Program-made: the position numbers and the translations under genes | Part shown: one piece after another, positions 1 through 46,161 of the stretch | How the letters are laid out: each line of letters starts with the position of its first letter | How positions within the stretch are numbered: position 1 is the stretch's first letter | The notes under the pieces: model-generated | Told to the model about the DNA's origin: nothing | The model's database searches: none | What the model saw: only the letters and a program-made list of their open reading frames with translations | From: Raillietiella orientalis | Taxonomy: Eukaryota | Direction of reading: 5' to 3' | Length of the DNA: 64,000 nucleotides | Assembly (NCBI GenBank): GCA_036172245.1 | Contig: JAYWIR010000014.1 | Location: 1,054,001 to 1,118,000 of the forward strand

Positions 1-2471
1 AAGCACGGGAGGTCAGGGAAACCGAGCAGCTTTTCCACGAAACTGCGAGCACACTCGCGCAGTGAATTGCGATGCCGCGCAGATTAGAGCCACGAGCTCC
101 CCACAGGGCAGACGGCCCTTCTCAGGCCTTGGAGGTGTGCGATGGCAACGGAAGGAATGAAAAGGTGTACTGTGCGCGCATCCCGAGAGCCTCGACGGAT
201 CGCCGCCCTCTCCCTCCACCCCAACCCTCTCGCAAAGGCTCGCCTTCGCGCCCTACCGCACGATGGTTGTGGCCGCTGGTTCCCGAGCCAAACTGCCAAG
301 TTGGAGAGCTGTTTCTCCCTCCCCCCCCCCTCTCTTGCTCGCCTGGCGAGGATTCTGCAAAGTCCGACCGGAGTCCACCCGGAGACACCCTTTCGTTAGC
401 CTGCGACGCCGGTCTTCCCTCAACCACTGACTTCCATATGACAGGATTTTACCGCGCCTTCCGCGATGACCGCGAAAAGTCTACCCACCCCCAGTTTCGG
501 TCAACAGTCGAAGCCCTTCTTTGCCCGTGGCAGAGAGCCTTGCGCGGAACGGATATGCTTCCCTGGACCACGGTGAGCCACGCTTTTCGAACAGGAGCGG
601 TCCTGTGATCGCAAACCGACGATGGCGATCGATACGTACGAGAAGGTGCACCCCGTGTTCCCCGATCCCAAGCGTTGGCTCTCCCCTGCATAAGAATCGC
701 CTCTATCTAATGAAGCGTTCCCTGGCATTCCCGGACGCGAAAGCGAGGACCGCTTCGCCGCTTCTCGGAGAGCGAGTGGGGGGAGCAGGAGGGGGGAACG
801 AGAGCGCGCGCTTTCACATAATTCCGTGTCCGTCCGTTGCCATCCCCCGGGGATCTCTTGGTTTGCCGTTTGTTCACCTGGACGAGCACCGACTCGCAAC
901 CTCCGGGCCCGCTCAGACGACGCCTGGCCGTCCCGAGCGGGACTCCGAGTGACGGCAACCTCGCGAGGCAGCGACAACACACGGCATCGGAACCAGCCCG
1001 AGGCGAAAAAGAACCGCTTTCTCGAGGCGGGAGGCAAGTAACTTCCGGAGTGGCAAACAGCGGGCGCTTCGCTTGTGCGCAAACCTTGTGCGCTTCGCGA
1101 AAGGCGATTTCCCCGAGCTCGCAGGGCTGCACGCCTTTTCCGCCGTTGCACATCCCTTCTCCGAGTTGTGCACGTTTTACGCAACAGCTGGCACGGAGGA
1201 CACTGAGCTTGCCATTCTCGTCGCAAAGGACGAAATAGCCGTGTCCTTCGTGCTTTCAGTCTTATTCCAACGCCTCCTGCTCTCCGCTTCCCCTTTTCCA
1301 GAAAGGTCACCTGTCGAGGCTGAAAAGTTTGAACCCGTTCTTTTAGAAACCTGGTAATAAGTGACTCCTCGTTTCCAAATGACGCTGGTTGTTCTCACTC
1401 TCCCCCCTTTCTCCCGGGGCTCTTTCCAGTCTGATTCTTCGCTCTTTCGAACCGACCCATTCCCGACAGCAACTTGCGCTGACATCCGACTGAAGCACGC
1501 GGGTTCATTTTACGGCAATCTTCTAAATAATCAAAGAATTCGAAACCTAATCAGCTCACGCTAACAGCCGGCAGATCATTTTCCGATGGTCCGTGGATTT
1601 TTTCCTCGAGAGATAAAATCACTTTCACTTGGTCTGGATTTCTGCGGCGAAAGATCGCACAATTGCGGCAAAGTGCTGGAGAAACCTGCAGCGCGATCGA
1701 ACGGGACGCGGTCGGCTGTTCTGGGTGCATCCGGGAAATGAGGAAGAATCGATCCGACCGCCTCGTATTGTTGCTAATTATTTCAAAGGAAAATCGCACA
1801 CGTACACGAAATCCTTGCGGTGTCGAGTTCCCCATTTCCGCAGAAAGTGCAGCGCTGCTGAAAATAGAAATAGATAAACGTGATTCCTTGTTCTTCGGAG
1901 CGTGACCGAAAAGGTACGCAAATTCTGGAAACGCATGCAACGCGTGGACACCGACTTTTCTCGGGTGTTACAGAGAAATGGCAGCAGAGAACGACAAGTG
2001 CACATGAGACACCTTTGAAGAAACAGGCTTTTCGAGGACTGAGGAGCCTCGTGTAAGCCGGTCAAGAACTCGTCCCCCTTTTCCGAATTCGCCTCTAATT
2101 TGCAACTTGGAAACCCGTTTCGCGTAGTAGCAGCGAGGGCATCTTGAGGAACATCTTGTAAACCAAAATGACAAGCAACGTAAAGGAACGATGGATTTTT
2201 AATGTCCGGTGGCGAAGACGTATCCCTTGACTCATTAACTCGGAAACACGAGAATTAACAAACGAAACTGGAGCAGATTTTTTTTTTTTTTTCTTCAAAA
2301 TTCCGGAAAACTTCACTTGATGAGAAGTACCTAAGGGAGACTTGTTCGTTTGCGCTGCTTCAGAAGCAAAGACAAACTATTCGTTCAGCTTGCGCCGTTT
2401 GCACCAACGGACAGCACAGCAGCAAGGAGCTTTTCGGCACTCCGACAGCTCGACCTATGGCACGCTCCAGA

Positions 2472-2605: not shown

Positions 2606-4568
2606 CAGCTGAAAATCGCATCCTGGCACTCAAAACGAATGTTTTGAGGACTCATGCCATGTTGGAAAAAGGTACGACAAGTTTCCACTCAGCATGCTTG
2701 CGTGCAGCTGAAAACGTTGCACTGTGCCAACAGGAGTGGCACCGGTGTCACGCTTCTTCCAGCCTGATCTATGGTCACCAACATCTGCAAATAAGGTTCA
2801 CCACGGAAGGAAAGATCACCTCACTGGCGATGCAGAACGCCCGGATCGAAAGAAACGTCGGGACCACATAACCCAGACTGGAACGTGGAATGAAGACTTC
2901 TGAAGCACTTCTGAAGTTACGAAGGCTCCTTCTCCATGTGAGCTGCGAGTAGGCACCACCAAGGTACACCAAATCATTTCAAATGCCGTAAAAGGAAGAT
3001 CATTAGATGATGATTCTATTTTATTTAAGAGTCGCGACTTTCCTCCGGATAAAAGCTCGTTTTAACCGGCCCTATGTCCCCACGCCAAGCGTGCAGGAGT
3101 AGAAAATCTCAAGGTGTAGAATACGGGAATTCGGTGACAGGCAAGAAAAAGCACTACAGGAAATGGAAGCTGGAAGAAAAAGACGAGGGAAAACGCAGCA
3201 GACTACGAATGCATGCCACCGGGCAACGGTGGAAGCCCTAGAACGTCACGTCTGCCTCGCATATCAACATTGGAGTTGAACACACGGCAGAAGTTTCCAG
3301 AACTGCAAAATAAGGCCTTTAGTCCGTGCATCTAAATTTCTGCGATACTAACGTGCACAGGAAACGCAGACTGTTCCGTGGAGAGCGCAAACACAAGATA
3401 CAGATATAAAAATAACACATATATACGCAATAAATGCACTGCAAGTTCGGCTTCCAACGCTTTTTTCGAAAAGTGCTCTTGGCCTAAATACGAGAAAAGA
3501 AGGGGTAGAGAGAAGGTGGCGAGTGTGAATGGCGCAGGGTCGTTCGACGCGTATTATTTAAGGGGCTTGAAGCTGTCGTCAGGGTTTTCATAAGCACCTT
3601 CACAAGACTAGCAGCTGTGCTTCCCGTCTGGAAGACCAGTCCGATGATCTTAAACAACCTGACGACTTATTTGGCCATCATTGGCGCCGGACACTGCTGT
3701 GCATCCTTTTACTTTCATGGCAAATGGTGTGAGCATATACATGTTATTTCGAAAACATCGCGAACGTTCGAGATTGTTTCCTAGGTGTTTCACGTATCAC
3801 GCTGAATTTGCAGGGATAAACTTCAGGATGTGTTCATAAAACAAAAATGAAGAAAAAAAAAAAAACATAAATAGGAAACTTCACCCTCTTAACGGAACAC
3901 ACTGATGTCCCCAACAGAATATTCATGGGAAGGAAGAGCTCCTCCCCGTATCATTCTCGACTTGTAAAAGCGCACACACTTTGCATCATGTTTCGAGTAG
4001 AAAATCTCCTTAGGAACATCTTGTGCTCGCGTGCTTTTTTCCATTTTAAACAAGCTTTATCTCGTCACGCCAATTACATACCGTACTGCGTGGTTTTTCT
4101 GTTGAGTCACCTCCGTTCTTTTCACGAGACTTACGCAAACATTGCTGGAAAATCCGCCCATCTTGCCACTATCTTCATCATTTGCTACCCATCACTTAAA
4201 TCACCTCGGTTGAGTCCCGCGCACCTACTCCGGGAACGCGTTCGCCCGTAAACTGGCGATTGGCTCTCAAGCAAAAAACGAAAATGGAAAAAGGCTGTGA
4301 TCAGAAATCCTTCTCATTCACTTCCCCCCTCCCCCTCCTCCTCCCCCTCATAGTGAAGCAGTAGGTACGACGAATCTATCAACCACGTGAGAACTGCTTT
4401 GTTCGTTTATTTCATCCTTCCACTTCGTGCACGGTACCAAAATGCAGATGTGAGCCGACTTTCTCTCAAGATCTCGAGTGACAAGTTGCAACACAACAGA
4501 CTGTTTCACGCCTTTCCCAAAATGAGAATTACCCACGTCAAATACCGATGCTCGTAAATACTCTTCGA

Positions 4569-31465: not shown

Positions 31466-34400
31466 CAGGATCCTAACAGATGAAAAGCAAACGAAGGGAC
31501 TCCGTCTCGTACATGATTTGGCTCAGAGACAGCTCGAGAACATGGAATTGTCTTCGGATAGAGCGTTTTCAAACAGGAGATTCAATGAATCGAGTTCGAT
31601 TGCATTCCTTTGTCTTTCTGTGGTTTGAATGCTTTGCCTACTTGCTGTCGAGAGCCTTTATCTTTAAAGTAGATTATTTTTATCGCTTGTAAAGTTTCGC
31701 ATCAACTATTTACTCAAAAAAAGGGCGCGGAATGTTGTATAATCTGATTCCAAATTCTGTGTTGTACCCATCCGAAGAACAGAATGAACGTAAACAAATG
31801 ACAGTGGCGGTGGGAACGAGGGATGCGAACTTCTACACCACCTGAAGCTTCCATGAATCATCATCACTTCGGCACGTTATGCTGGTCGAGAACAGCACTG
31901 CGAACACGTTGGTGAGTTTGTGCTGGGGACTGCAACAAAGTAGATCGAAAACCTGGGTTTCCCATTAGGCGTGTTCCGGGAACACAAAGCTCCGGGATGA
32001 CCTTGACTGGAAATACTCTTGAGGAATGCAAAAATGATTCGCGATGATTTTGCCGTTCGTATGATCACTCGTAAAAACATGAGTGCGCAGGAAAAAATAA
32101 AAAAAAAACTCAAGATGGGGCATCTATTACAGTACGATGACGTACAAACACACTAAGCTGGGGTTGGGGATGCAGACGGATGGTGTCAGGAGTTTGAGGA
32201 GATTCTGCCGGAGTGCGCGATTACGAGCAGGAATTCTCATCAGTCACCTTCGAGAATCACTCCATTTTTCGCAGGCAGAGGCGCTGGCGGACGTCTCGCC
32301 GTTAACCGATCAACTTTTTTAATCGATCCTAGCCTTGCTCAATATTTCCCTTCCTTGTCTCTGTCGAAAAAAATCGGCGATGCCGGGCTGATGTGGCTCA
32401 GGTGACAAAACATCTGAAAGAGACTTGGAATTGCAAATGCCAGTAGATAACGCGGGGAGCAATGAAACGGAAAGAGTATGCCGAAAGATCGGCAATCACG
32501 CAGCTTTGTTCTAAGGCTTCCTCGCTTGTGGCTCCATCTCGGCGCGCGCGCAACCGGAGACGAGCACGCCACCTCGCGTCTGGATGCATCTTACCAGCAC
32601 CCCTTGGGCGTTTCTTGATGACGCGCACGGGATGTCGTCGCACTCAGACGGATTTCCTGTGACACGCAGCGCGTAGGAGACGCCGCGCGCACAAGTGAGT
32701 ACAGGCGGAACAGTACGGCTCCATACGAGATGCTATGGGCCGGCGAGCGTGTCGGCTCAGGCACAAAAACTGGCCGCGTGGAATCGATCCCGAAATAGGT
32801 GTAGGTGGTGAGCACCTTGGAGTTCTTTGGCACGGAATGCCGCGGCGGGCTAAGAAGCAACAGGCCGGATGTCTTAACTAAGGATGAGTGGCGAAGAAGA
32901 AAAAGAGAAAGAACCGTAATAAAGAGCTGTAATGAGCGCATGGCACTTCGGAAAAAATTGTGACGCCTTTTTGAAGGTCGGCAGCGTGCCGTAGTCTAAG
33001 AAGAATAACACCTCAGGGGCTTAACTACCCTGAGGCATTCTTCCTTCCTTCCTAAGGAGCATTTCCTCGGGGATGACTACTGACGGCATCCACAAAAGGG
33101 AAACATTGGATAAAGATCAGTTTCTCCGGCAGGAAGCCATTTCATGCTGAGGTCGGGTGAGTTTAGCAACCGCCATTTCGACCACCCACAGACCCGCTCC
33201 TCGCTTCCCCTCAGACACTCGGCTCTTCCGGAAGCTATTCGTGGGACGCCTACTTTCCAGACGCTTTTTGTAGTCCGCGGCGGATTCCCTTCGCTAGGCC
33301 TCCGCAAGCAAGAACTCATCCATCACCTGCCGGGCACCTCGCGGGTCAAATCAGCGAGAAGGATCTGACGGAAAGACAGACAGGATAGAAGAGCAGCAAC
33401 CGGGCAGATCTTGTATCAGAACTCCGGCAACGGGCTCGCCGCTCGTTGTCGGGACTCCCAGGGGCTGTCGTGCAGTAAGCAGATACTGGATAGGCACCGA
33501 TTTCAGGCAGGCGAGATCGACCTTCTCGCAGTAGGAGGAAGCTCTGTTGCAGGTCGATTGCACCAGCAGAAGTGACGTCACGGGCAGCACGGAAAGCGGC
33601 ATCTTGTGCGCGAAGGGAACGCACTCCTGGTAGCGGCGTGGACGGAGCAGGGACGAAGCCGCCTCTTCTAAGCCTTCAGGAGCCTCAAAGCCTTTGCACC
33701 AGCCTTCGTCCGACAACCCCGCGGTCTCGCTTCGGGAGGAAGCAAGCAGCGCCGCACCAAAAAGCTCGGTACCACGGCAACGGGTTCTCGAAGAGGAAGG
33801 TGCCCGAACCTCCTCTGCAGCGGCTGGCAACTTCACGGAAAGACCAATCGTTTTCTCCAGGGAGGAGGGCCTACTAGCTCTTCCTCCCGGCCGATCACGG
33901 AACACGACACCACCTCTCCAGATGAATGCGAAGGGGATGGGAGGGCGAATTTCACCGGACAGAAGGACGCTCTCCCGCGGCTAAGACTGGAGGACAGATC
34001 AGCTTTGGGCAGCAGGAGTGGGGGAATCTTCCAGCAGTGAGACCAGCCACCAGATGGCGGTGCCGGTGGTCCCGCAAGACAGGGAAGAGGAAGGCGGCAA
34101 CGGTATGCTCTGTTTGAGGAAGGTGGACGAGGTGTTTGGGGATGTCCTGAGGGACTGGATTTGCAGCCCCAGCCAAGGTGTTCCCCGCTCATGGGCGCCG
34201 AAAGCTGGGAGAACGGCGGTGCTCTGAACGGAAGACGGTGCCCATCGGGGGAGTCACCGTCATGGGCAGGAGTGTCCGCAGTCCGGGAAGGCAAATGCTT
34301 GATCTGCGAGACCAGCAGCGCTGCGGAACGATATTCCCCTCCTCCTCCTCCTCCCCACCCGTGACGAGCGGGTCTGTGTGCTTTCGCCGGGTCTATGTTC

Positions 34401-37400
34401 CGATGCATTTTCGGGGCGAAGCTAATCTCCGGGTCGATGGCGGGCAGCTCGTCCATCCGACGTCCTCCCGCGGCAGCATTCGGAACTGCCGAAGTTGCAT
34501 CGGGAATGCTGCCAGAGTTTTTCACTTGGTTTCAGGCCATGTGGATTTACTAATCCACTAATGTAAGAAAAATTCAATAGGAGGCAAACGACGAAAAAAA
34601 GACCATCGACTCGCCATGCGGCTACGCAGAAGGGTAGCAAGGGTTTAGGGGAGGAAGGACGGCAATAAAGAAAGGAATCAAAGGGGAGAAAGGGACGCGG
34701 TCATATCCACCGCGCCTTCTGCAACCTGGAGGATGCGATGCGAGCGGTGCCTTCCTTCACTCTGGCATCCTTCTTGTCACCTTGCCACATTTCTCGTTAC
34801 CATGGAGACCATAACGCTTCTTTCTTGCTGGCATGCCTCTTCAGCATTCCGAGACGCCGCTATCCTCCTGACGGAAAGCAGAATCGGGCGAGCGGGGGGA
34901 CAGGCGACAAAGACCCCGTCCTGAGCGAAGCAGCGCTCTTCTAGGGTGTCTTCAGAGTCGAAGTGAAGCAGCAGCCGCGAGGCTCTCCCACGCGCTTCGA
35001 AGGTCACAGCGTCCCAGCAGCGGGGTGAGCGGAAGTTTCCACTTCCCCGCAGCCTGAGCGGTTCAGGGAGACGCCGCTTCCCCTCGTCCAGCGATGCTTC
35101 CGATGGTTGCACGTGCAGTTCCAGTGAGCGCACAGCAAAAGCCTCTTCCTGCGGCCGCCTGAGAGGGAACACAGACCTGTCCAGACAGAGGGGAGAGATT
35201 ACGATTCCCGATGGCGTAACGTCCAGATATGCTGCGCAACGGAGCAGTCCCTGGCTGCCACCGTCGCGAAAGCTAACTGGCCCGTCGTCCACCAGCCGAC
35301 CAGTTTCGTCGCTCCCGCTACGGAGCGCGAGGTGACCTACGCCCTGCCGTCTGGCAGCTGTCGTTTCTCTCGCGTAGGGAGAACAGCGCTGCGGCTAGGT
35401 GAGTGACAGGGACTCGGAACCACTTCTTCCTTTCCCTTTCCACTTCCTACAGGGAGACCCTTCTCAGGTTGAGGATGGGATGTACCAGGGTTGCGTTCGT
35501 GCGCATGATGCGGATCCAAGCGCTATGTGTCCTTTCCACAGGCAGCGCTTTGCTTCAGTGGAAACCCAGGCATCTTCATGAGGTTTTAGTTGCGAGGAGC
35601 AACGACGTCAGCCCTCGCAACCGACCGCGCGCCTCGGATTTCTCGCGCAGGCAGAACCGCTTCCAGTTCTCGACCATCAAGACCATCATCCTAAACTGGA
35701 GCTGCAGTTTCATCTTCTTTAACGCGGAAATATCTATTCCTGCATCCCTTCGTGGTGCTATCAGGTCTTTGAGGCAAGCCTTCTGCCTCGGTGTGGCTCC
35801 ACAGAGCTTCCCTCAAGAGGTCGTCCGCCTTGCGTTTCGCCTCGTTGGTGGGCACGAAACAAACAAACAAACAAAAGGGACCAGAGAAGGGGGACAACGA
35901 GGACCTTCCAGATGGAGGCTTTCTGACGAGCAAAACTCTCCCTCTTGTGACGATGCAAGCACCATTTTCGCCTTCTGGAGAACCGGGCCAAACTTCTGAA
36001 GGACAGAGGTCTCCTCAGAGCACACCAAGGTATTTCTTAGTGCTGCCCGCGCCGCATCCCCACAGAAGCGACCTTCAAGTTCATCCCGTTCGCTCTCGTG
36101 TTCTCTCCCCGACTCTGGCATCCGACAGCTCGCTTCTCTACAACCCTCCTCATCCTGGTAGCAGGCTCGAAACCGGGCTACCACTACAGGACGAGGGGAA
36201 GTGTCTCTCCAGGGGGACGTGCTGGGAGTGAAGGAACGGAGGAAGGAGTGGGAAACCTTCCTCACCTGCTGGAGAACACTGCTGGAACGCTTCTCCACGA
36301 CCCTCCTCACCCCATCGTCGCTTCGAAGAACGTCTTCGTGCGGAGCGCCTCACCGGTCTTCCTCCGTGATCGCAGCGCTCTGTCGCTTCTGCGGCGTCGC
36401 GGCAGCGAGGTACGAAACGGAGGGAAGACGCAACGACGCGGGGAGGCCGTCCACTTGGCAACCCGCTTCCTGCGAATCGCGGAGGGATGGACCCACATGA
36501 GACGCCGTCAGGAGTAGCTTCCCGGCATCATGCACAGGATGCGGAGGAGCCAACGGAACGGGCAGTGATCTCTTGTCCCCTCTCCCCCTCCCCCATCCTT
36601 AGGAACAGTCGTTCCCGTTTATATTGCTTCTTCTTCTTCTCCTTTCCCGATTCCCCTTAATCCCGTTCACGGAACTCATCGGCATTCCCTAAAGGATGGT
36701 TCGACTCGGCGGGACGTCATGTCCGGCCATATTTTTGTATGTTTATTTTCAGAATAAACACCCTTGTGTGACCGCGTGAAAATCCACCCGCTCCTCACCC
36801 GGAGCGATTCCCTCCTATGGTCTTCCTGAACTCTTGACCTCCACGGGCAGGAGCGCAAGGAGCCGTGGAGGAAAGCCGTTCGAAAGAAGCGCCGTTTTTT
36901 TTCGGACGTGGTGTCGCCGGAGACGTCAGCAATGGGAGCCGCCCTTTTCCTTCCGCCTGAAGGCCGAGGTCGCCGTCCTGCCGCGCTCTTATGGAGAAGG
37001 TCGCGATCCCTCGGACTGGGTGGCCTCGTCCCGGTCTGTCTCTGCCATCCTGGCCTGACGCAAGGGGTCGCACCCCTCGCCCTGATCACAGCGCGCCCGA
37101 AGAACCGGTTCCAAGGAGTTCGTCTCAAGGGAAGTGCTGCTGAGAGCGCGGTGGGTGTCTGTTGGGCTCTTCGGTGAAACGGGAGGGGGGCGTCAATGCC
37201 ACCACGAGTTAAGTATCTCCTCAGGGCGTTGGGAGCGCCTTCCAAAAAGAGGAATCCGCTCGACGAACTTTTGGAGCATTCTAGAACGGAACGATCGCAC
37301 CCGGATGCAGTGGGTCACCCGGAGATATCGGATGTTTTACAGTTCTCTTGAGGGAAAGAGGGAGAGAGAGAAAGAACCTACTGTTACAATACGAGAGAGT

Positions 37401-40400
37401 GGGCACGATAGGGTAAGTCCCTTGCACCGGTGATCGGAGGAACTCTTGGCCCCTTTGGGCAGGTGCATATGGTGCAAGGGACTCCGCGAAACTTATCGAA
37501 AGAGGATTCATTTCCACGTTCCTGCCAGCACGTCTCCCCGGAAAGGTAAGGAAGGAAAAAGGGCGAGGAGTGCACTCAAGGGGGATAGTAGATGGACAAG
37601 AGGCTTCAGAAGGGAAGAGAGAACCGGAAGGGAGGGGATTTACGCTTGGGCTCTTCTCTCTGTACGCTCGTTGCTGCTCCGTGGATGCCTCGGGCTCTCG
37701 TCTCTGCCGCTGCGAAACGGCAGACCCCACTTAGCATCGGATGGAATTCCCCCTCCCCTCCCCTGCGTGTGCTGCTCCTGGTCCTCGCACAGTGCCAAGG
37801 CAGCTAGGAAAGATGCTCCTTGATTCCTCACGTCGGAAACAGGCAGGTCTTGCGTCAGCGGTTCGTTCCCTTCCGTTTCCGAGGAGGTTTCGGGTTCTCC
37901 TCGCGCTCGCTCTTCTTGGCATATGGTCGTCGACTTCCCAGGGAAATCTTTGCTTGAATTTTTTTGCAGAGATTCACCTGAAGGATCGAGGGACGAAACG
38001 CTCCAAGAACACCCCTTCCTCTCTGGATTGGAGGGTGTTCAGAGTTGTTGCCTACCTTCGCTAGCTTCCCGGTGCCATCTCTTCTTACGCGCCTGAGGCG
38101 AGAGAGAAGAAGGGAGAGGAAGAACAGGGCTCCTCTCAGGCGGCGAGCTCAAAACGGAAGAACCGGGAGCACCGTGACGCCAGGGAACGCGCTGACCTGC
38201 GCATTTCAAGCACCGCGTCGAAAAAGGGTTTCCCTTGAAAGAAACCATCCCTCTGGAGCCGCGCTCTGCTCTTCTTCGGTAGGAGACCTCCCTTCATTAC
38301 CTTTCCAAAAGAGCAGCTGCGAGACGTGGCCTCAACGTTGCGAACAGGGGAGCGAGGAGGAGCTCCCACATGCGGGGTGCAGCGGCTGCGACGGGAACGT
38401 CTTTCCCTCGCCATTCTCCCCTCTCTCACCCGCAGGTGCACGAGACGCACGGTGTCCAATGAGGAGCTTGCGCTTCCACGCTGCAGAGCGGTGGCTGCCC
38501 GAGAGCTGCTTCGACATCAACGGCCACCGAAGGTCAGACAGAGCCGTCCTTCGGGGGACCCAGGAAGGCCACGCGGCTGCCTCGTGCAGCAAACTGCCGC
38601 CGCCTCAACCCTGTCGTATGGCTGCTGACGTTAGTCGTCGGCCTGATAAGACGGAAGCGCCATGATTTTCCTCCGCGCTTTCCAGCAACCCTGCGCGAAA
38701 ACTCAACATCAACTTTTGCCCAGCGGTTTCTGCAGCCACCTTCTTTCCTTCCTTCTCATCCTTTTTTCGTGCCATCCTGCAGCATCTGTCCCGAAGACCG
38801 TCGTGCCCTCTGCCGGTCAAGCGAGGAAGGAGGGTTGGAGGTGCAGCCGTTCGATCCGTGTGGCATCTGCGCCTCCCACCGAAAGTGCTTGCTCGGGCTA
38901 AACAGAAAAAAGCCGTTCACCCCCTTTCCTAATCAGAGGACTCTTGGGAGCGCTCAGTCGACAGGAGAAGGGAGGGGACAGGATGCCATCTTTAGACGAT
39001 ACTCTTTGGAGAACAGGGGGAAGGAGAGGAGGGACAAGAGAGCAGCCCTCGCATTGCGGAGTTCTCGAGGGAGCAGTTGCGAAGCTGCGAAGATCATCGA
39101 ACAACCGCGTCGCTGCGATGATCCTGAGAACTCCGAAAAGAAGCTGTCCAAAGGAAAGATGAGCACTGCCAGAGATTGAAGGCAAAAAAGAGGACAACTG
39201 GGTTCCGATTCCCGCGGGGAATTCGAAGCCAGGAATCAGGGAATCTTCCTAGTTGGGAATCACGCTTGTTGAGGCCGTAATTTCCATGCTTATTCCTGTG
39301 GTCTCGATGAGGAAGGCGTCCAGAGATTCCTTCCAAAATAATGGACCAACCACCACCATCTTAGTCGTCATCGCCATTTTATCAGTGAGAAAATTCCCCC
39401 TCCCCCATACCGAAGACCTCATTGTGCGTCGTTACAGAGGGTTTCCTCCTTTTCTGCATCCCTTCGTGCCATAATGACCTCGAACTCTTATAGTCACTCT
39501 TCTAGCTAGTCTAGACGAAGGTTGTCTTCCTGATTCACAGCATCAGAGGACTCCATGTCTATTCGGCACGCACACTCCATCTCCCACTTAGAAAACCAGA
39601 GACAAGGCAAACACCATGCCAATCGGAAAGCTACTCTGCACCTCATCATCACATCTCCAAAATGTGACCAGCAGAGCCCCGAAATGAGGAAATGAAGTCC
39701 CGTCTCCCCTACTTTTACGAGAGTCCTTCGAGATCCGGAAAATTTGCCTCTCTCTAGAGGTTTCGAGAATTGGCTTGCATCAGTGTGTTGCTCAGACCTG
39801 ACCCTCGTGAGGGTTCACCAAGTAAAACCAGCCTTTCTCTTTCTTAATCCTCCCCTCTTCCCCTCCATCCTTTGCCTCTCTCTTCGATAGTTCGATTCCT
39901 CAAAGTTCGCGTATTTCGGCGGGAAAATGCGATGAGGGCAATTCCTCTCACATGCTCCCCAGGAAGGATTTACTACCGTGCTTCTCATTGAGGTCTTTCG
40001 CACTTCACGGTGGCACTTCGTTGGTTAATCTTGAATTTCTCCCAGCAATCATCTGGGAGATTTGCTCTGCTTTCCGTCGTTTCCTGTGAGAGACGAAGCA
40101 ACCCATACCAGAAATATACTCATTTTCTATTCCATGATTCCCGCTTCATGCCTACCTCTGTGTATTGCTATTAGGCAGGGTGAAATAAATTCAATGTTTT
40201 GGCTTTTGTTGCTGATTTCAGTCACATGGACATAATCCACTGCTGATGGTCTACCACTGACCTTTTTCGAAATCTCTTACGAGAAACTGATTCCGCATAG
40301 GATATTCGAGCTCCTTTCTCTGTTACTCCAATTTCACGTCTTAGTAAACTGTATTATTCATTCTAAGGAAGTGAGTTTCATTTCTTCAAATTGCATCGAG

Positions 40401-43160: not shown

Positions 43161-43215
43161 AGGGTTTAATTTGCGTTGAGACAGAAAGCAACCTATTGAT
43201 TTTGACTTATTAAAG
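43161..43215 (+). other. Probable acceptor (tttttag, AG 43161-43162) and 5' UTR part of the first coding exon of eIF4G2
   Basis: T-rich acceptor. In-frame TGA at 43177-43179 and no ATG before the conserved N-terminus. Confidence 0.55.
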
Positions 43216-46161
43216 ACGGACGGGTTGGCACTAGAAGGGAGTGCTTCTCGTAGCTCAGGAGGAAGGTGAGAAACTTTTTTTATGCATAAGCACATTTAGA
43301 GATGAATATTGCAGTAGGGATGAATCCCACTCCCTTTCCACCACAATAAAGCGTTGGGTTCCTCCCTCTAGCTTAAAACGAGATGCGCTCTCCCAAGAGG
43401 AAAAGAATGATATTATATTCCGCAAAGTGCGTGGGATCCTTAATAAAATCACCCCTGAGAACTTCGATAAGCTAAAGAATAACATCCTAAGCCTTGGCCT
43501 CAATTCCCCTCTTGTTTTAAAAGGTGTTATTATTTTGGTGAGTAGTTGATTTCTAAGATTTTTGCTAATGTTTGGGACAGATTTTTGACAAGGCTCTTGA
43601 GGAACCCAAGTATAGTGCCTTGTATGCTCAGCTATGTAAGTGTTTGTCAGTAGAATTGCCTAATTTCGAGAAGTCGGGACCACGAACATTTGAGAAGTTT
43701 CTTCTCAACCGGTGTAGAGATGAGTTCAACAAACGTTCTTGCAACCTTGAAGTGGGTTCTCAGAGTAATGTTACTAATTCAGAGCATGGCAATCAGCATG
43801 TCAAGCGCAAGATGCTTGGCAATATCAAGGTAGTGCTCATTGGAAATATGGATTGAACAGATTTTGCTCAGTTCATTGGAGAGCTTGGCAAGCTGCAGAT
43901 GCTGGAAGAAGCTATTTTGCATAAATGCATCCAGGAGTTACTACAGAAGACACGTGGCTCCTGCAATGCAGATATGGCAGAGGACTTGGAATGCCTCTCC
44001 CAGATAATGAAAACTTGTGGTGCCATCTTGGAAAAGCCACAAGCCAAGGTTTGTAAAGAGATCATCCATCATAGTTGATAGTCATGTTTCTATTAGCTGC
44101 TCATGAATCAATACTTTGAGCGCATTGCCACACTCTCAGCTAGTGGAAATCTTCCTGCCCGTATTCGCTTCATGATGCAAGATGTTCTTGATATGAGGAA
44201 GAATGGCTGGCGTCAGCGTCATTATTCTGCTGATAAAGGACCCACCACTCGCACTGAGGTTACATTATGATGTTTTGAGACTGGGAATGATTAGGATGAT
44301 GTGTAGATACGAATGGAAGCATCCTTCTGTGGCATGTTCCATCCTCAGTTCATGGATATGCATTCTCAATCTTATTTGTCATCTTCAATACATGGAAAAA
44401 ATACCCTTGGCATGGATGATGTTTTGATGCCTTGTCAACCCACCAGTTTGCTGGGAATGAATACAGATGTTAGAAGAGATCCTATTCTGTAAGTGAAAGC
44501 TCTGAACTTTCAAATTTAGTTCTGTTAGCAATGGGTTTGCCCACAATAACTATCCATCTCACACCAAGTTGTCTGGAGTATCATATTCCAAATCATCCCA
44601 TCGAGCCTTTAACCATGCTTTTTCTCACAGCAACAGCAAGAATTCTTCACATAGTAGTGGCTTTAGCAATACCAAAGCTGATTGCCTGAATAGTGGTGAG
44701 TGTTTAAAAATAGGCATACAAGCAGTGGTTCCTCTAGCATATAACAAAGATGTACCTCCACGCTTCAAGAGAATGGCATTAGCACAGCAGCAAGAGCAAT
44801 TTTACAGACAACAACAAGTACAGCTGTCATGCAATACTCGGGAAGAAGTGCCTTTATCTTTGCGTCCTCAGCCGCAATCTATGATGGCTAAGTCTCATGT
44901 TGCTGCTGTCCCTGCAAAACAAGTAATTCTTTCTCAAGAGCCTTTGTTGCCAGTGCATCCCATTATCCCTCCCAATTTACCACCACCCACACTTCACAAG
45001 GAGCCGGCCATTGTTTTCAAGCCAGCAACATCAGATAAGGGCAAATCAAGTCGGAAAGATAAAGCACCTACCAAGGAAGAACTGCATAACAGGCTGAGCA
45101 CTTTCCTTGAGCAGCAGCATCAAAATTCTGCTGAAATAACGGATACAGTCACTCACTTCCAGGCTTTAACGCTGCCTGATAGATTTCTAGGTTCTGCACT
45201 GAGTTTCATGATGAATTGGTTATTGAAGCAGAATAAGGAGGATAACAGCTGGACATGGTTCGGAAAATTTTTATGCTGCATGCATAAAAAGGACCTGCTC
45301 CAAACTCCAGTTTTTCTCGAAGGTGTACGAGATGTGTTGGAGCATATAGAAGAGTCTGATTCTGTACTTGTTGATAAGATGAGATCTGGAGTATCTATTT
45401 GGTTGAGCAGTTGGATATGTGATGGTGCTGGTAATCTAATGGACATAGTAGAGCTGTTGGAGAATGGGCACCACCATCCACTGTTCTTCCTTGTATTGCA
45501 GCAGTGCTGCATAACAAAAGGTCGTGATTGGTTAATGGAAGTTTTTGAATCAAACAAAGTTAACCTGATGATGATGCTTCCAGAGGCTCAGCGTGCTAAA
45601 GATGTATTAGCTGACATTCTTGAAGAATACAATTTGAGTTTTCTGCAGCCTTTGCTGCGTATTCATAAAGAATTGAGTCATGCTCTAAATGCTGACCCCA
45701 ATCCCACGTCATTGTACAAGTGGATTCGTGCAAATCTTCAATCTGAGCACCATTCTGATCCTGCCTTTATTTCTGCTTTGATTACTGTGCTCATGAATCA
45801 TGTAATTCAGCAGGTCAATCCCTTGAGTGAGGATAAGCAACAGGAGCAGGAGAGGGAACTGTTGAACAAATTCAAGCCTTTGCTTGTTGCTTTTTTAAGA
45901 GATTGTGTTGATCTACAATTAGTTGCCATATATGGAATACAAGCATTTTGCCATTCCTGTTCATTTCCGCCAGGAATGTTGCTACGCTGGTTCAGTAATT
46001 TGTATGATATGGAAGTATTATATGAAGAGGCATTTTTAAGATGGAAAGAAGATCTTTCGCAAGACTATCCAGGCAAAGGAAAGGCCCTAATCCAGATCCA
46101 TAAGTGGCTAGATTGGTTATCTCAAGCAGAGACTGATGAAGAAGGTGAAGAAGAGGAATAG
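43216..46161 (+). CDS. eIF4G2: Eukaryotic translation initiation factor 4 gamma 2 (NAT1/DAP5/p97). Exons 43216-43265, 43300-43537, 43581-43829, 43872-44048, 44097-44258, 44307-44488, 44529-44695, 44738-46161. Predicted non-AUG (ACG) start; 882 aa, or 896 aa if 44696-44737 is retained
   Basis: N-terminal LEGSASRSSGG; RWVPPS; MIF4G motifs IFRKVRGILNKITPENFDKL, IFDKALEEPKYSALYAQLC, KRKMLGNIKFIGELGKL, EDLECLSQIMKTCG and LPARIRFMMQDVLDMRKNGW; KDVPPRF; MA3-like region; W2 domain with EEAFLRWKED, PGKGKAL and WLDWLSQAETDEEGEEEE. It lacks the long eIF4E-binding N-terminal third of eIF4G1. All introns are GT-AG and the phases are consistent (2649 nt = 883 codons). Confidence 0.97.

Follow-up and report, generated by a model that had tools for sequence, protein, structure and literature searches.

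A probable ACG start for eIF4G2/NAT1 in Raillietiella orientalis, conserved in arthropods at the position of the vertebrate GUG

Where does translation begin on a message whose first in-frame AUG lies deep inside its first conserved domain? The question is raised by a gene in a stretch of 64,000 nucleotides from Raillietiella orientalis (GenBank assembly GCA_036172245.1, contig JAYWIR010000014.1, positions 1,054,001 to 1,118,000 of the forward strand; this whole stretch is referred to as the window, and coordinates are given within it). The gene is, by its sequence, a crustacean-like orthologue of eIF4G2, also known as NAT1 or DAP5. We propose that positions 43216-46161 of the plus strand encode an eIF4G2 of 878 or 883 residues, the only productive start of which is very probably an ACG codon at 43216. 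Comparison with relatives lends good support to the view that this ACG is the pan-arthropod form of the gene's conserved non-AUG start and not a peculiarity of one lineage: it is found in all arthropod-type relatives in which the site could be placed and would therefore represent a phylum-wide version of a known non-AUG start.

The proposed start site and the gene behind it

Read directly from the sequence, the ACG at 43216-43218 (+) is followed by GAC GGG TTG GCA CTA GAA GGG AGT GCT TCT CGT AGC TCA GGA GGA AG and then, from 43266, by the donor gtgaga. It is the proposed initiation codon, which would be decoded as methionine by initiator tRNA, and it stands in the context aAG ACG G (43213-43219), with A at -3 and G at +4. 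An in-frame TGA (43177-43179), 13 codons 5' of the ACG, bounds the N-terminus, and no ATG is found in the window sequence between this stop and the donor at 43266; the near-cognate codons in frame over the same interval are AAG 43186, ATT 43195, AAG 43213, ACG 43216 and TTG 43225. The segment 43163-43215, over which alone the leader of the window was judged, is putatively the last part of the 5' leader, following a putative acceptor ttttag at 43162 that is recognized by its sequence only, and it contains no ATG; in a genomic relative (L007) an acceptor-like tttttacag stands about 63 nucleotides before the ACG. The coding part of exon 1 (43216-43265), assigned by homology to the N-terminal block of relatives, reads (M/T)DGLALEGSASRSSGG plus the AG of a split codon.

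The first in-frame ATG of the spliced model is found only at 43812-43814, where it forms codon 169 or 174, depending on the acceptor used for intron 1, and falls inside the MIF4G domain as delimited by Pfam (KRKMLGNIK). Nine or ten out-of-frame ATGs precede it in the spliced message. The first in-frame AUG of relatives lies in the motif S-M-YAQLCK, at which positions 43608-43628 of the window read SALYAQLC, and the first in-frame AUG is therefore still further downstream here. The sequence observation itself, namely that the gene has no usable ATG and carries an ACG in strong context, is thus confirmed: direct reading and the spliced model agree with the original prediction on the ACG at 43216, the TGA at 43177, the bases at -3 and +4, the donor at 43266 and the lack of an in-frame ATG before 43812.

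The assignment to eIF4G2, likewise proposed at the outset, is upheld both by Pfam domains and by the nearest named proteins. Stop-to-stop frames searched against Pfam place MIF4G over three small exons and W2 at the close of a 551-codon open frame. The three matches to MIF4G (PF02854) in exons 2-4 have expectation values (E) of 7.9e-4 (19.6 bits, on its own below the cut-off), 5.8e-10 and 2e-11 and jointly span profile positions 2-163 of 203, and W2 (PF02020) is matched at E 8.7e-19 and 5.9e-19 over profile positions 2-79 of 79. An MA3 domain (PF02847) between the two went unreported in the Pfam search even at E up to 1; a precomputed PF02847 match is likewise missing from many relatives named eIF4G2. 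The nearest proteins are arthropod eIF4G2 sequences of 39-42% identity, and the named matches are all eIF4G2 or "N-acetyltransferase 1" (a mislabel of NAT1), none of them eIF4G1 or eIF4G3. There is also no long N-terminal region for binding eIF4E and PABP, the TGA lying 13 codons before the ACG and the motif FRKVRGILNK falling at about residue 52-57; the protein model, of eight exons, begins about 55 residues before MIF4G.

The aligned codon in relatives and competing explanations

Metagenome contigs were scanned with an alignment of 13 relatives, which yielded 75 loci, mostly on transcript contigs of 3-4 kilobases. An N-terminal block X-[DAE]-G ... G-G-A-S-R, 12 codons from X to Arg, was placed in 51 of the 75 loci and in the window; in the remaining 24 the contig lacks the 5' part or the N-terminus has diverged. 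At position X the 52 blocks read ACG in 47 cases, CTG in three (the mollusc-like L013, L019 and L045) and GTG in two (L023 and L063). ACG is common to all 46 arthropod-type loci with a placed block and to the window, and its carriers comprise chelicerate-like, collembolan-like, insect, barnacle and decapod-like sequences as well as a large crustacean group with a probable spliced leader. Four of these 24 block-less loci were inspected, with a candidate AAA/AAG CTG GA. in L064, L066 and L067 and an ATG in L072.

In a FastTree phylogeny of 59 proteins with named anchors, all ACG rows fall within the arthropod clade and the CTG and GTG rows outside it. The ACG groups are anchored by Tetranychus, Orchesella, Lycorma, Aromia, Contarinia and Pollicipes, alongside the large unnamed crustacean group, and the window sits inside the arthropod clade paired with the ostracod Cyprideis, a join between two long branches that the tool flagged with a warning. 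Outside the arthropods, the N-terminal part of L063 is 98% identical to a gadid fish protein and has AAA GTG GAG 12 codons before the Arg of the A-S/C-R motif. The sequence of vertebrate proteins is ...AAK-V-ESAIAEGGASRF, and L019 matches the annotated N-terminus of pond snails, with Leu at this place in brachiopod and chiton proteins. Both the vertebrate proteins and the spacing in L063 bear out that the ACG and the vertebrate GUG align without gaps, as the original prediction had stated. Its claim that this lineage had changed the codon does not hold, given the ACG in all 46 arthropod-type loci placed: the change lies between phyla, which have ACG, CTG or GTG. The accompanying suggestion, that selection favours a weak start and not a given codon, survives in part, in that it fits the turnover between phyla but is at odds with a codon that is invariant within arthropods.

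How the bases are conserved bears on whether the ACG is kept as a codon or as a threonine. Across 39 distinct ACG strings (-30 to +45), the A at -3, the three bases of the ACG and the G at +4 are each found in 39 of 39, whereas their neighbours vary (-2: C 30, A 8, T 1; -1: G 24, A 14, C 1; +5: A 18, C 21; +6 also variable), so that invariance coincides exactly with the bases that count in start-site selection. As a control, codon use was examined in 24 representatives inside the invariant block FRKVRGILNKLTPEKF of the same genes, whose conserved Thr is encoded by ACT in 8, ACC in 5, ACA in 5 and ACG in 4 (n = 22); codon 1 is ACG in 20 of 20 arthropod-type representatives, and the Thr codon that neighbours it varies freely among ACA, ACC and ACG. 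The near-cognate ACG is hence conserved in orthologues beyond amino-acid need, and in a strong context. Since the RNA-derived contigs of relatives read ACG, no bulk editing to AUG is seen in them.

Initiation could also take place at another near-cognate codon of exon 1, either alone or together with the ACG, with UUG 43225 and AUU 43195 as the candidates. Each of them lies in frame after the TGA and before the donor, the UUG has G at -3 and +4, and an AUU start appears in the FlyBase listing for Drosophila NAT1. Codon 4, however, is unconserved and varies in relatives among CAG, CCC, GTA, GTT, GTC and TTG, the AUU at 43195 has C at -3, and no upstream position is near-cognate in all lineages, which makes this alternative unlikely. 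In L031, with a stop at -9 codons, a pair of adjacent ACGs makes up the whole set of in-frame near-cognates ahead of the block.

A somewhat less probable alternative, and one to which we give little weight, holds that the ACG is an internal threonine codon under a constraint at the RNA level, initiation being diffuse or occurring by internal entry elsewhere in the leader. It draws on codons 8-12 (GGG AGT GCT TCT CGT in the window, 43237-43251 on the plus strand), which codon comparison finds conserved at synonymous sites across phyla: as GGN GGT/AGT GCT TCT CGT they are nearly invariant from arthropods to the fish transcript (L001-L063), with TCT in 18 of 18 serines at codon 11 and, for the 24 arginines at codon 12, CGT in 19, CGA in 4 and CGC in 1. 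The control positions behave otherwise, the invariant arginines of the FRKVRGILNK block being spread over five codons and the MIF4G control codons varying freely. The region thus carries non-coding information, and within groups there is amino-acid-like conservation upstream too (T or K before the ACG). Against an internal threonine stand the invariance of precisely the codon, -3 and +4 amid variable bases at -2, -1, +5 and +6, the CTG or GTG of other phyla at the same position, near-cognates that encode different residues, and in-frame stops of which the closest lie 5-9 codons upstream. RNAalifold returned no consensus hairpin downstream of the start in 20 codon-aligned sequences (-15 to +51), and minimum free energy z-scores over +1 to +66, from mononucleotide shuffles, are unremarkable (-2.26 to +1.92, window -0.61); individual sequences do allow local hairpins, though in differing registers. 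The signal at codons 8-12 could itself be part of the start mechanism.

The leaders of relatives bear on a third possibility, that an upstream exon carrying an AUG is spliced in frame behind the TGA, at cag 43184 or aag 43215, and provides an ordinary start. AG dinucleotides are indeed present at 43183-43184 and 43214-43215, and the RNA contigs begin only at 43316. The two genomic relatives, L007 and L075, have the end and phase of exon 1 in common with the window (GGA GGN AG|gt), yet no AG precedes the ACG in either (gcgcaaca ACG in L007, attaaca ACG in L075), from which it follows that no exon begins with the ACG there; L007 also has a TGA 12 codons upstream of its ACG. Nearby in-frame upstream stops are the rule in relatives: among 55 open reading frames with FRKVRGILNK, an in-frame stop lies upstream in 50 and this MIF4G motif is preceded by no in-frame Met in 47, and the stops lie 9 to 83 codons upstream of the ACG. 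ATG is moreover depleted in the leaders in every frame, with 36 of 47 transcript contigs lacking any upstream of the start codon and 39 ATGs observed in the 47 against 145.7 expected from base composition (17 against 125.1 once the long outliers L024 and L055 are excluded).

The 5' ends of a subset of these transcripts are probably complete, since an exact 24-mer within the first 25-47 bases is common to 18 contigs of different species in the large crustacean group (L016, L017, L020-L022, L026, L027, L029-L032, L034, L037, L038, L040, L041, L046 and L047) and is, judging by this sharing, probably a trans-spliced leader. None of the 18 has an ATG before the ACG, which follows the shared sequence by 64-86 nucleotides. 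Variants of the 24-mer occur in L039 and L042. With 18 of 18 such leaders devoid of any upstream AUG, a normal AUG start on a hidden exon is improbable for this gene.

Least probable of all is a start at the AUG at 43812, or a gene that is a decaying copy, for although gene finders treat relatives in this way (with the MYAQLCK start in five of nine named proteins), such a start would remove about half of MIF4G, the 170 codons upstream are open, conserved and spliced in RNA, and the frame is intact through to W2.

Several points weigh against initiation at the ACG and deserve to be set out together. Related sequences are not independent, and the codon counts suggest more independent events than there were, although the rows nonetheless range from chelicerate-like to insect lineages. 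The mammalian start is experimentally proven, whereas initiation at the arthropod ACG is predicted from sequence. The RNA contigs (of this organism or a close relative) start at 43316 or later and leave 43163-43315 uncovered, so that exon 1 is a modelled exon. In the group with TTTAG and the shared leader the codon is doubled to ACG ACG, which makes the exact start ambiguous by one codon. An in-frame ATG occurs far upstream in two loci (L011 and L055), and L072 starts at ATG and lacks the block. The synonymous constraint at codons 8-12 is an RNA-level constraint besides start function, and it could extend to the ACG. Higher flies of the Drosophila type, finally, are without the block and have an N-terminal extension of about 500 residues, with AUU listed by FlyBase.

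The exceptional loci have features of their own. L072, as well as L071, is long-branched and near the mite clade, with an in-frame ATG 11 codons before RWVPPS and no N-terminal block, which in sequence looks like a reversion to an AUG start. In Diptera (P0036-P0082) the N-terminus grows stepwise: the gall midge has the plain ACG block and a nearby upstream stop, while mosquitoes and the soldier fly keep the block in a frame that is open far upstream and has a conserved TIP motif, and in Drosophila-type proteins the TDG...GGASR block was not found. These sequences suggest an upstream shift of the start in the fly lineage. For Drosophila NAT1 (CG3845), Table S3 of FlyBase (supplement 12 of PMC4528330) gives AUU, citing Takahashi 2005, and this contradicts the CUG start that the original prediction had attributed to the fly gene (PMC4528330).

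Public annotation does not reflect the ACG start. That automated annotation would truncate the gene was correctly foreseen, in that five of nine NCBI-named arthropod proteins start at the internal MYAQLCK, and many further arthropod entries are "partial" (many of them dipteran) or begin at spurious Met codons. Hymenopteran models (P0087, P0096, P0106, P0110-P0115 and P0118) all begin MPSRD(D/E); the ATG of MPSRDD maps in L007 (about 3980-3995) to the polypyrimidine/AG end of intron 1, with the ACG exon upstream, and the MPSRD start is either an annotation artefact or an isoform from an intron promoter.

Exon-intron structure

Two RNA runs, X1 and X2, hold small shares of the window (0.15 and 0.11), in contig sets that are 99% and 95-99% alike. 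Over 43355-45271 the X1 contigs are mismatched to the window at about 1-5% of positions, mostly through transitions, with identical splice junctions; their source is a close relative or a divergent strain. The RNA contigs confirm five introns downstream of exon 1, at 43538-43580, 43830-43871, 44049-44096, 44259-44306 and approximately 44696-44737.

On the plus strand, frame and splice signals offer two in-frame acceptors for intron 1 (43266-43314 in its longer version): 43299, for an intron of 34 nucleotides, the length given in the original prediction, and a long protein form GGRDEYCSRDES, or 43314, for one of 49 nucleotides and a short form GGSRDES. The remaining introns measure 40-48 nucleotides, which the 49-nucleotide intron fits at least as well as the 34-nucleotide one, and an X2 contig that starts at 43316 is a weak hint for the acceptor at 43314; a comparable long form, GGRDDDCYRDES, is found in the relative P0004, one of about 268 proteins checked. 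Both forms may exist, by use of acceptors 15 nucleotides apart and with or without the RDEYC-type residues, and the sequences suggest that intron 1 may have a conserved alternative 3' splice site.

Exon 2 (43315-43537, or from 43300 in the long form) contains the RWVPPS motif and the start of MIF4G according to Pfam, RNA contigs and model, and is followed by the 43-nucleotide GT..AG intron 2 (43538-43580), the joint of which is present in X1 and X2 contigs. Exon 3 (43581-43829), defined on the same three grounds, continues MIF4G and holds the in-frame ATG at 43812-43814; intron 3 (43830-43871, 42 nucleotides) is joined in an X1 contig, and exon 4 (43872-44048), again within MIF4G, is supported by Pfam and RNA contigs. 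Intron 4 (44049-44096, 48 nucleotides) has joints in both X1 and X2, and intron 5 (44259-44306, also 48 nucleotides) has one in X1; they flank exon 5 (44097-44258), which, like exon 6 (44307-44488), is drawn from RNA contigs and the model. Intron 6 (44489-44528, 40 nucleotides, GTAAGT..TTAG) is placed by frame and splice signals only, and exon 7 (44529-44695) by the model. Intron 7 (44696-44737, 42 nucleotides) lies within the open frame of 551 amino acids: an X1 contig skips 44693-44736 with two letters between, a net 42, and the bounds are set by GT..AG and the frame. Exon 8 (44738-46161), from open frames and Pfam, carries the W2 domain and the stop codon. The gene region is AT-rich (29-42% GC), and GC-rich blocks (53-61% GC) lie at window positions 1-2000, 32000-40000 and 54000-64000.

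Proposed mechanism, known systems and meaning

The splicing of exon 1 as modelled, ribosome initiation at the ACG and a regulatory role of the weak start are inferred. A scanning 43S complex would cross an AUG-free leader, meet the ACG, whose A at -3 and G at +4 make up the best context, and initiate there with initiator Met-tRNA at reduced efficiency. Ribosomes that scan past it would run into nine or ten AUGs out of frame, with none in frame over a distance of 168-173 codons, so that no truncated factor would be made and the ACG would be the sole productive start. By analogy with the mammalian GUG, the weak start may serve regulation, for instance through sensitivity to eIF1, eIF5 and 5MP.

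The closest known system is vertebrate EIF4G2 (NAT1/p97/DAP5), which is made from GUG only: the gene is orthologous, the near-cognate stands at the same aligned codon, 12 codons from the Arg of GGASR, flanked by A at -3 and G at +4, and the first in-frame AUG comes only within MIF4G, after out-of-frame AUGs. Out-of-frame AUGs before the first in-frame one are noted for EIF4G2 by Ivanov et al. Unlike the vertebrate GUG, the codon here is ACG. Initiation at the mammalian GUG is scanning-dependent and responsive to eIF5 and 5MP, and sensitive to eIF1 too, according to a 2023 review (PMC9945437). The GCC-rich "NAT1 motif" described upstream of the mammalian start (PMC13754004) is not seen in the window, where ttattaAAG precedes the ACG.

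Drosophila NAT1 is an arthropod orthologue that likewise lacks an AUG start, its site being not precisely determined according to the same 2023 review (PMC9945437). It differs from the gene described here by the AUU listed for it, by the extension of roughly 500 residues and by the missing block, and given the latter two flies are a derived case and not a model for this gene. Other main open reading frames that begin with ACG or another near-cognate follow the same logic of a near-cognate in a strong Kozak context; FlyBase Table S3 gives fly near-cognate cases with one ACG entry (PMC4528330), and yeast GRS1 and ALA1 are mentioned as near-cognate cases in PMC5666671. Those are mostly alternative N-terminal extensions beside an AUG form, whereas the present gene, like vertebrate EIF4G2, would have no start other than the near-cognate. 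No printed report of an ACG start in arthropod eIF4G2 was found in open-access PubMed Central or bioRxiv full text, and subscription journals may hold one. What is known, then, is the non-AUG initiation of EIF4G2 and its conservation; what would be new is the ACG at the vertebrate GUG position in arthropods.

We tentatively entertain a wider idea, which we think possible and well short of probable: that eIF4G2 has a start module fixed in position across Metazoa, with a near-cognate particular to each phylum (ACG in arthropods, CUG in mollusc-like lophotrochozoans, GUG in vertebrates), and coupled to an RNA element GGN GCU UCU CGU at +22 to +36, its synonymous sites kept for more than half a billion years, that would help the ribosome to accept the weak codon. 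Such a downstream element would act, for example, by way of a local hairpin or by contacting the ribosome or some factor.

Among cellular proteins that are made from a non-AUG codon only, eIF4G2 is the textbook example, and its start outside vertebrates had been left open. The comparison locates the arthropod start on an ACG that does not vary and that occupies the codon position of the vertebrate GUG, and the window is one more member of this arthropod pattern. For annotators the invariant ACG provides a repair rule for hundreds of arthropod models that are truncated, "partial" or wrongly extended. For the biology of the family, it means that the position and context of a weak start have been kept while its codon changed between phyla, with the conserved downstream RNA element as a possible determinant of near-cognate initiation.

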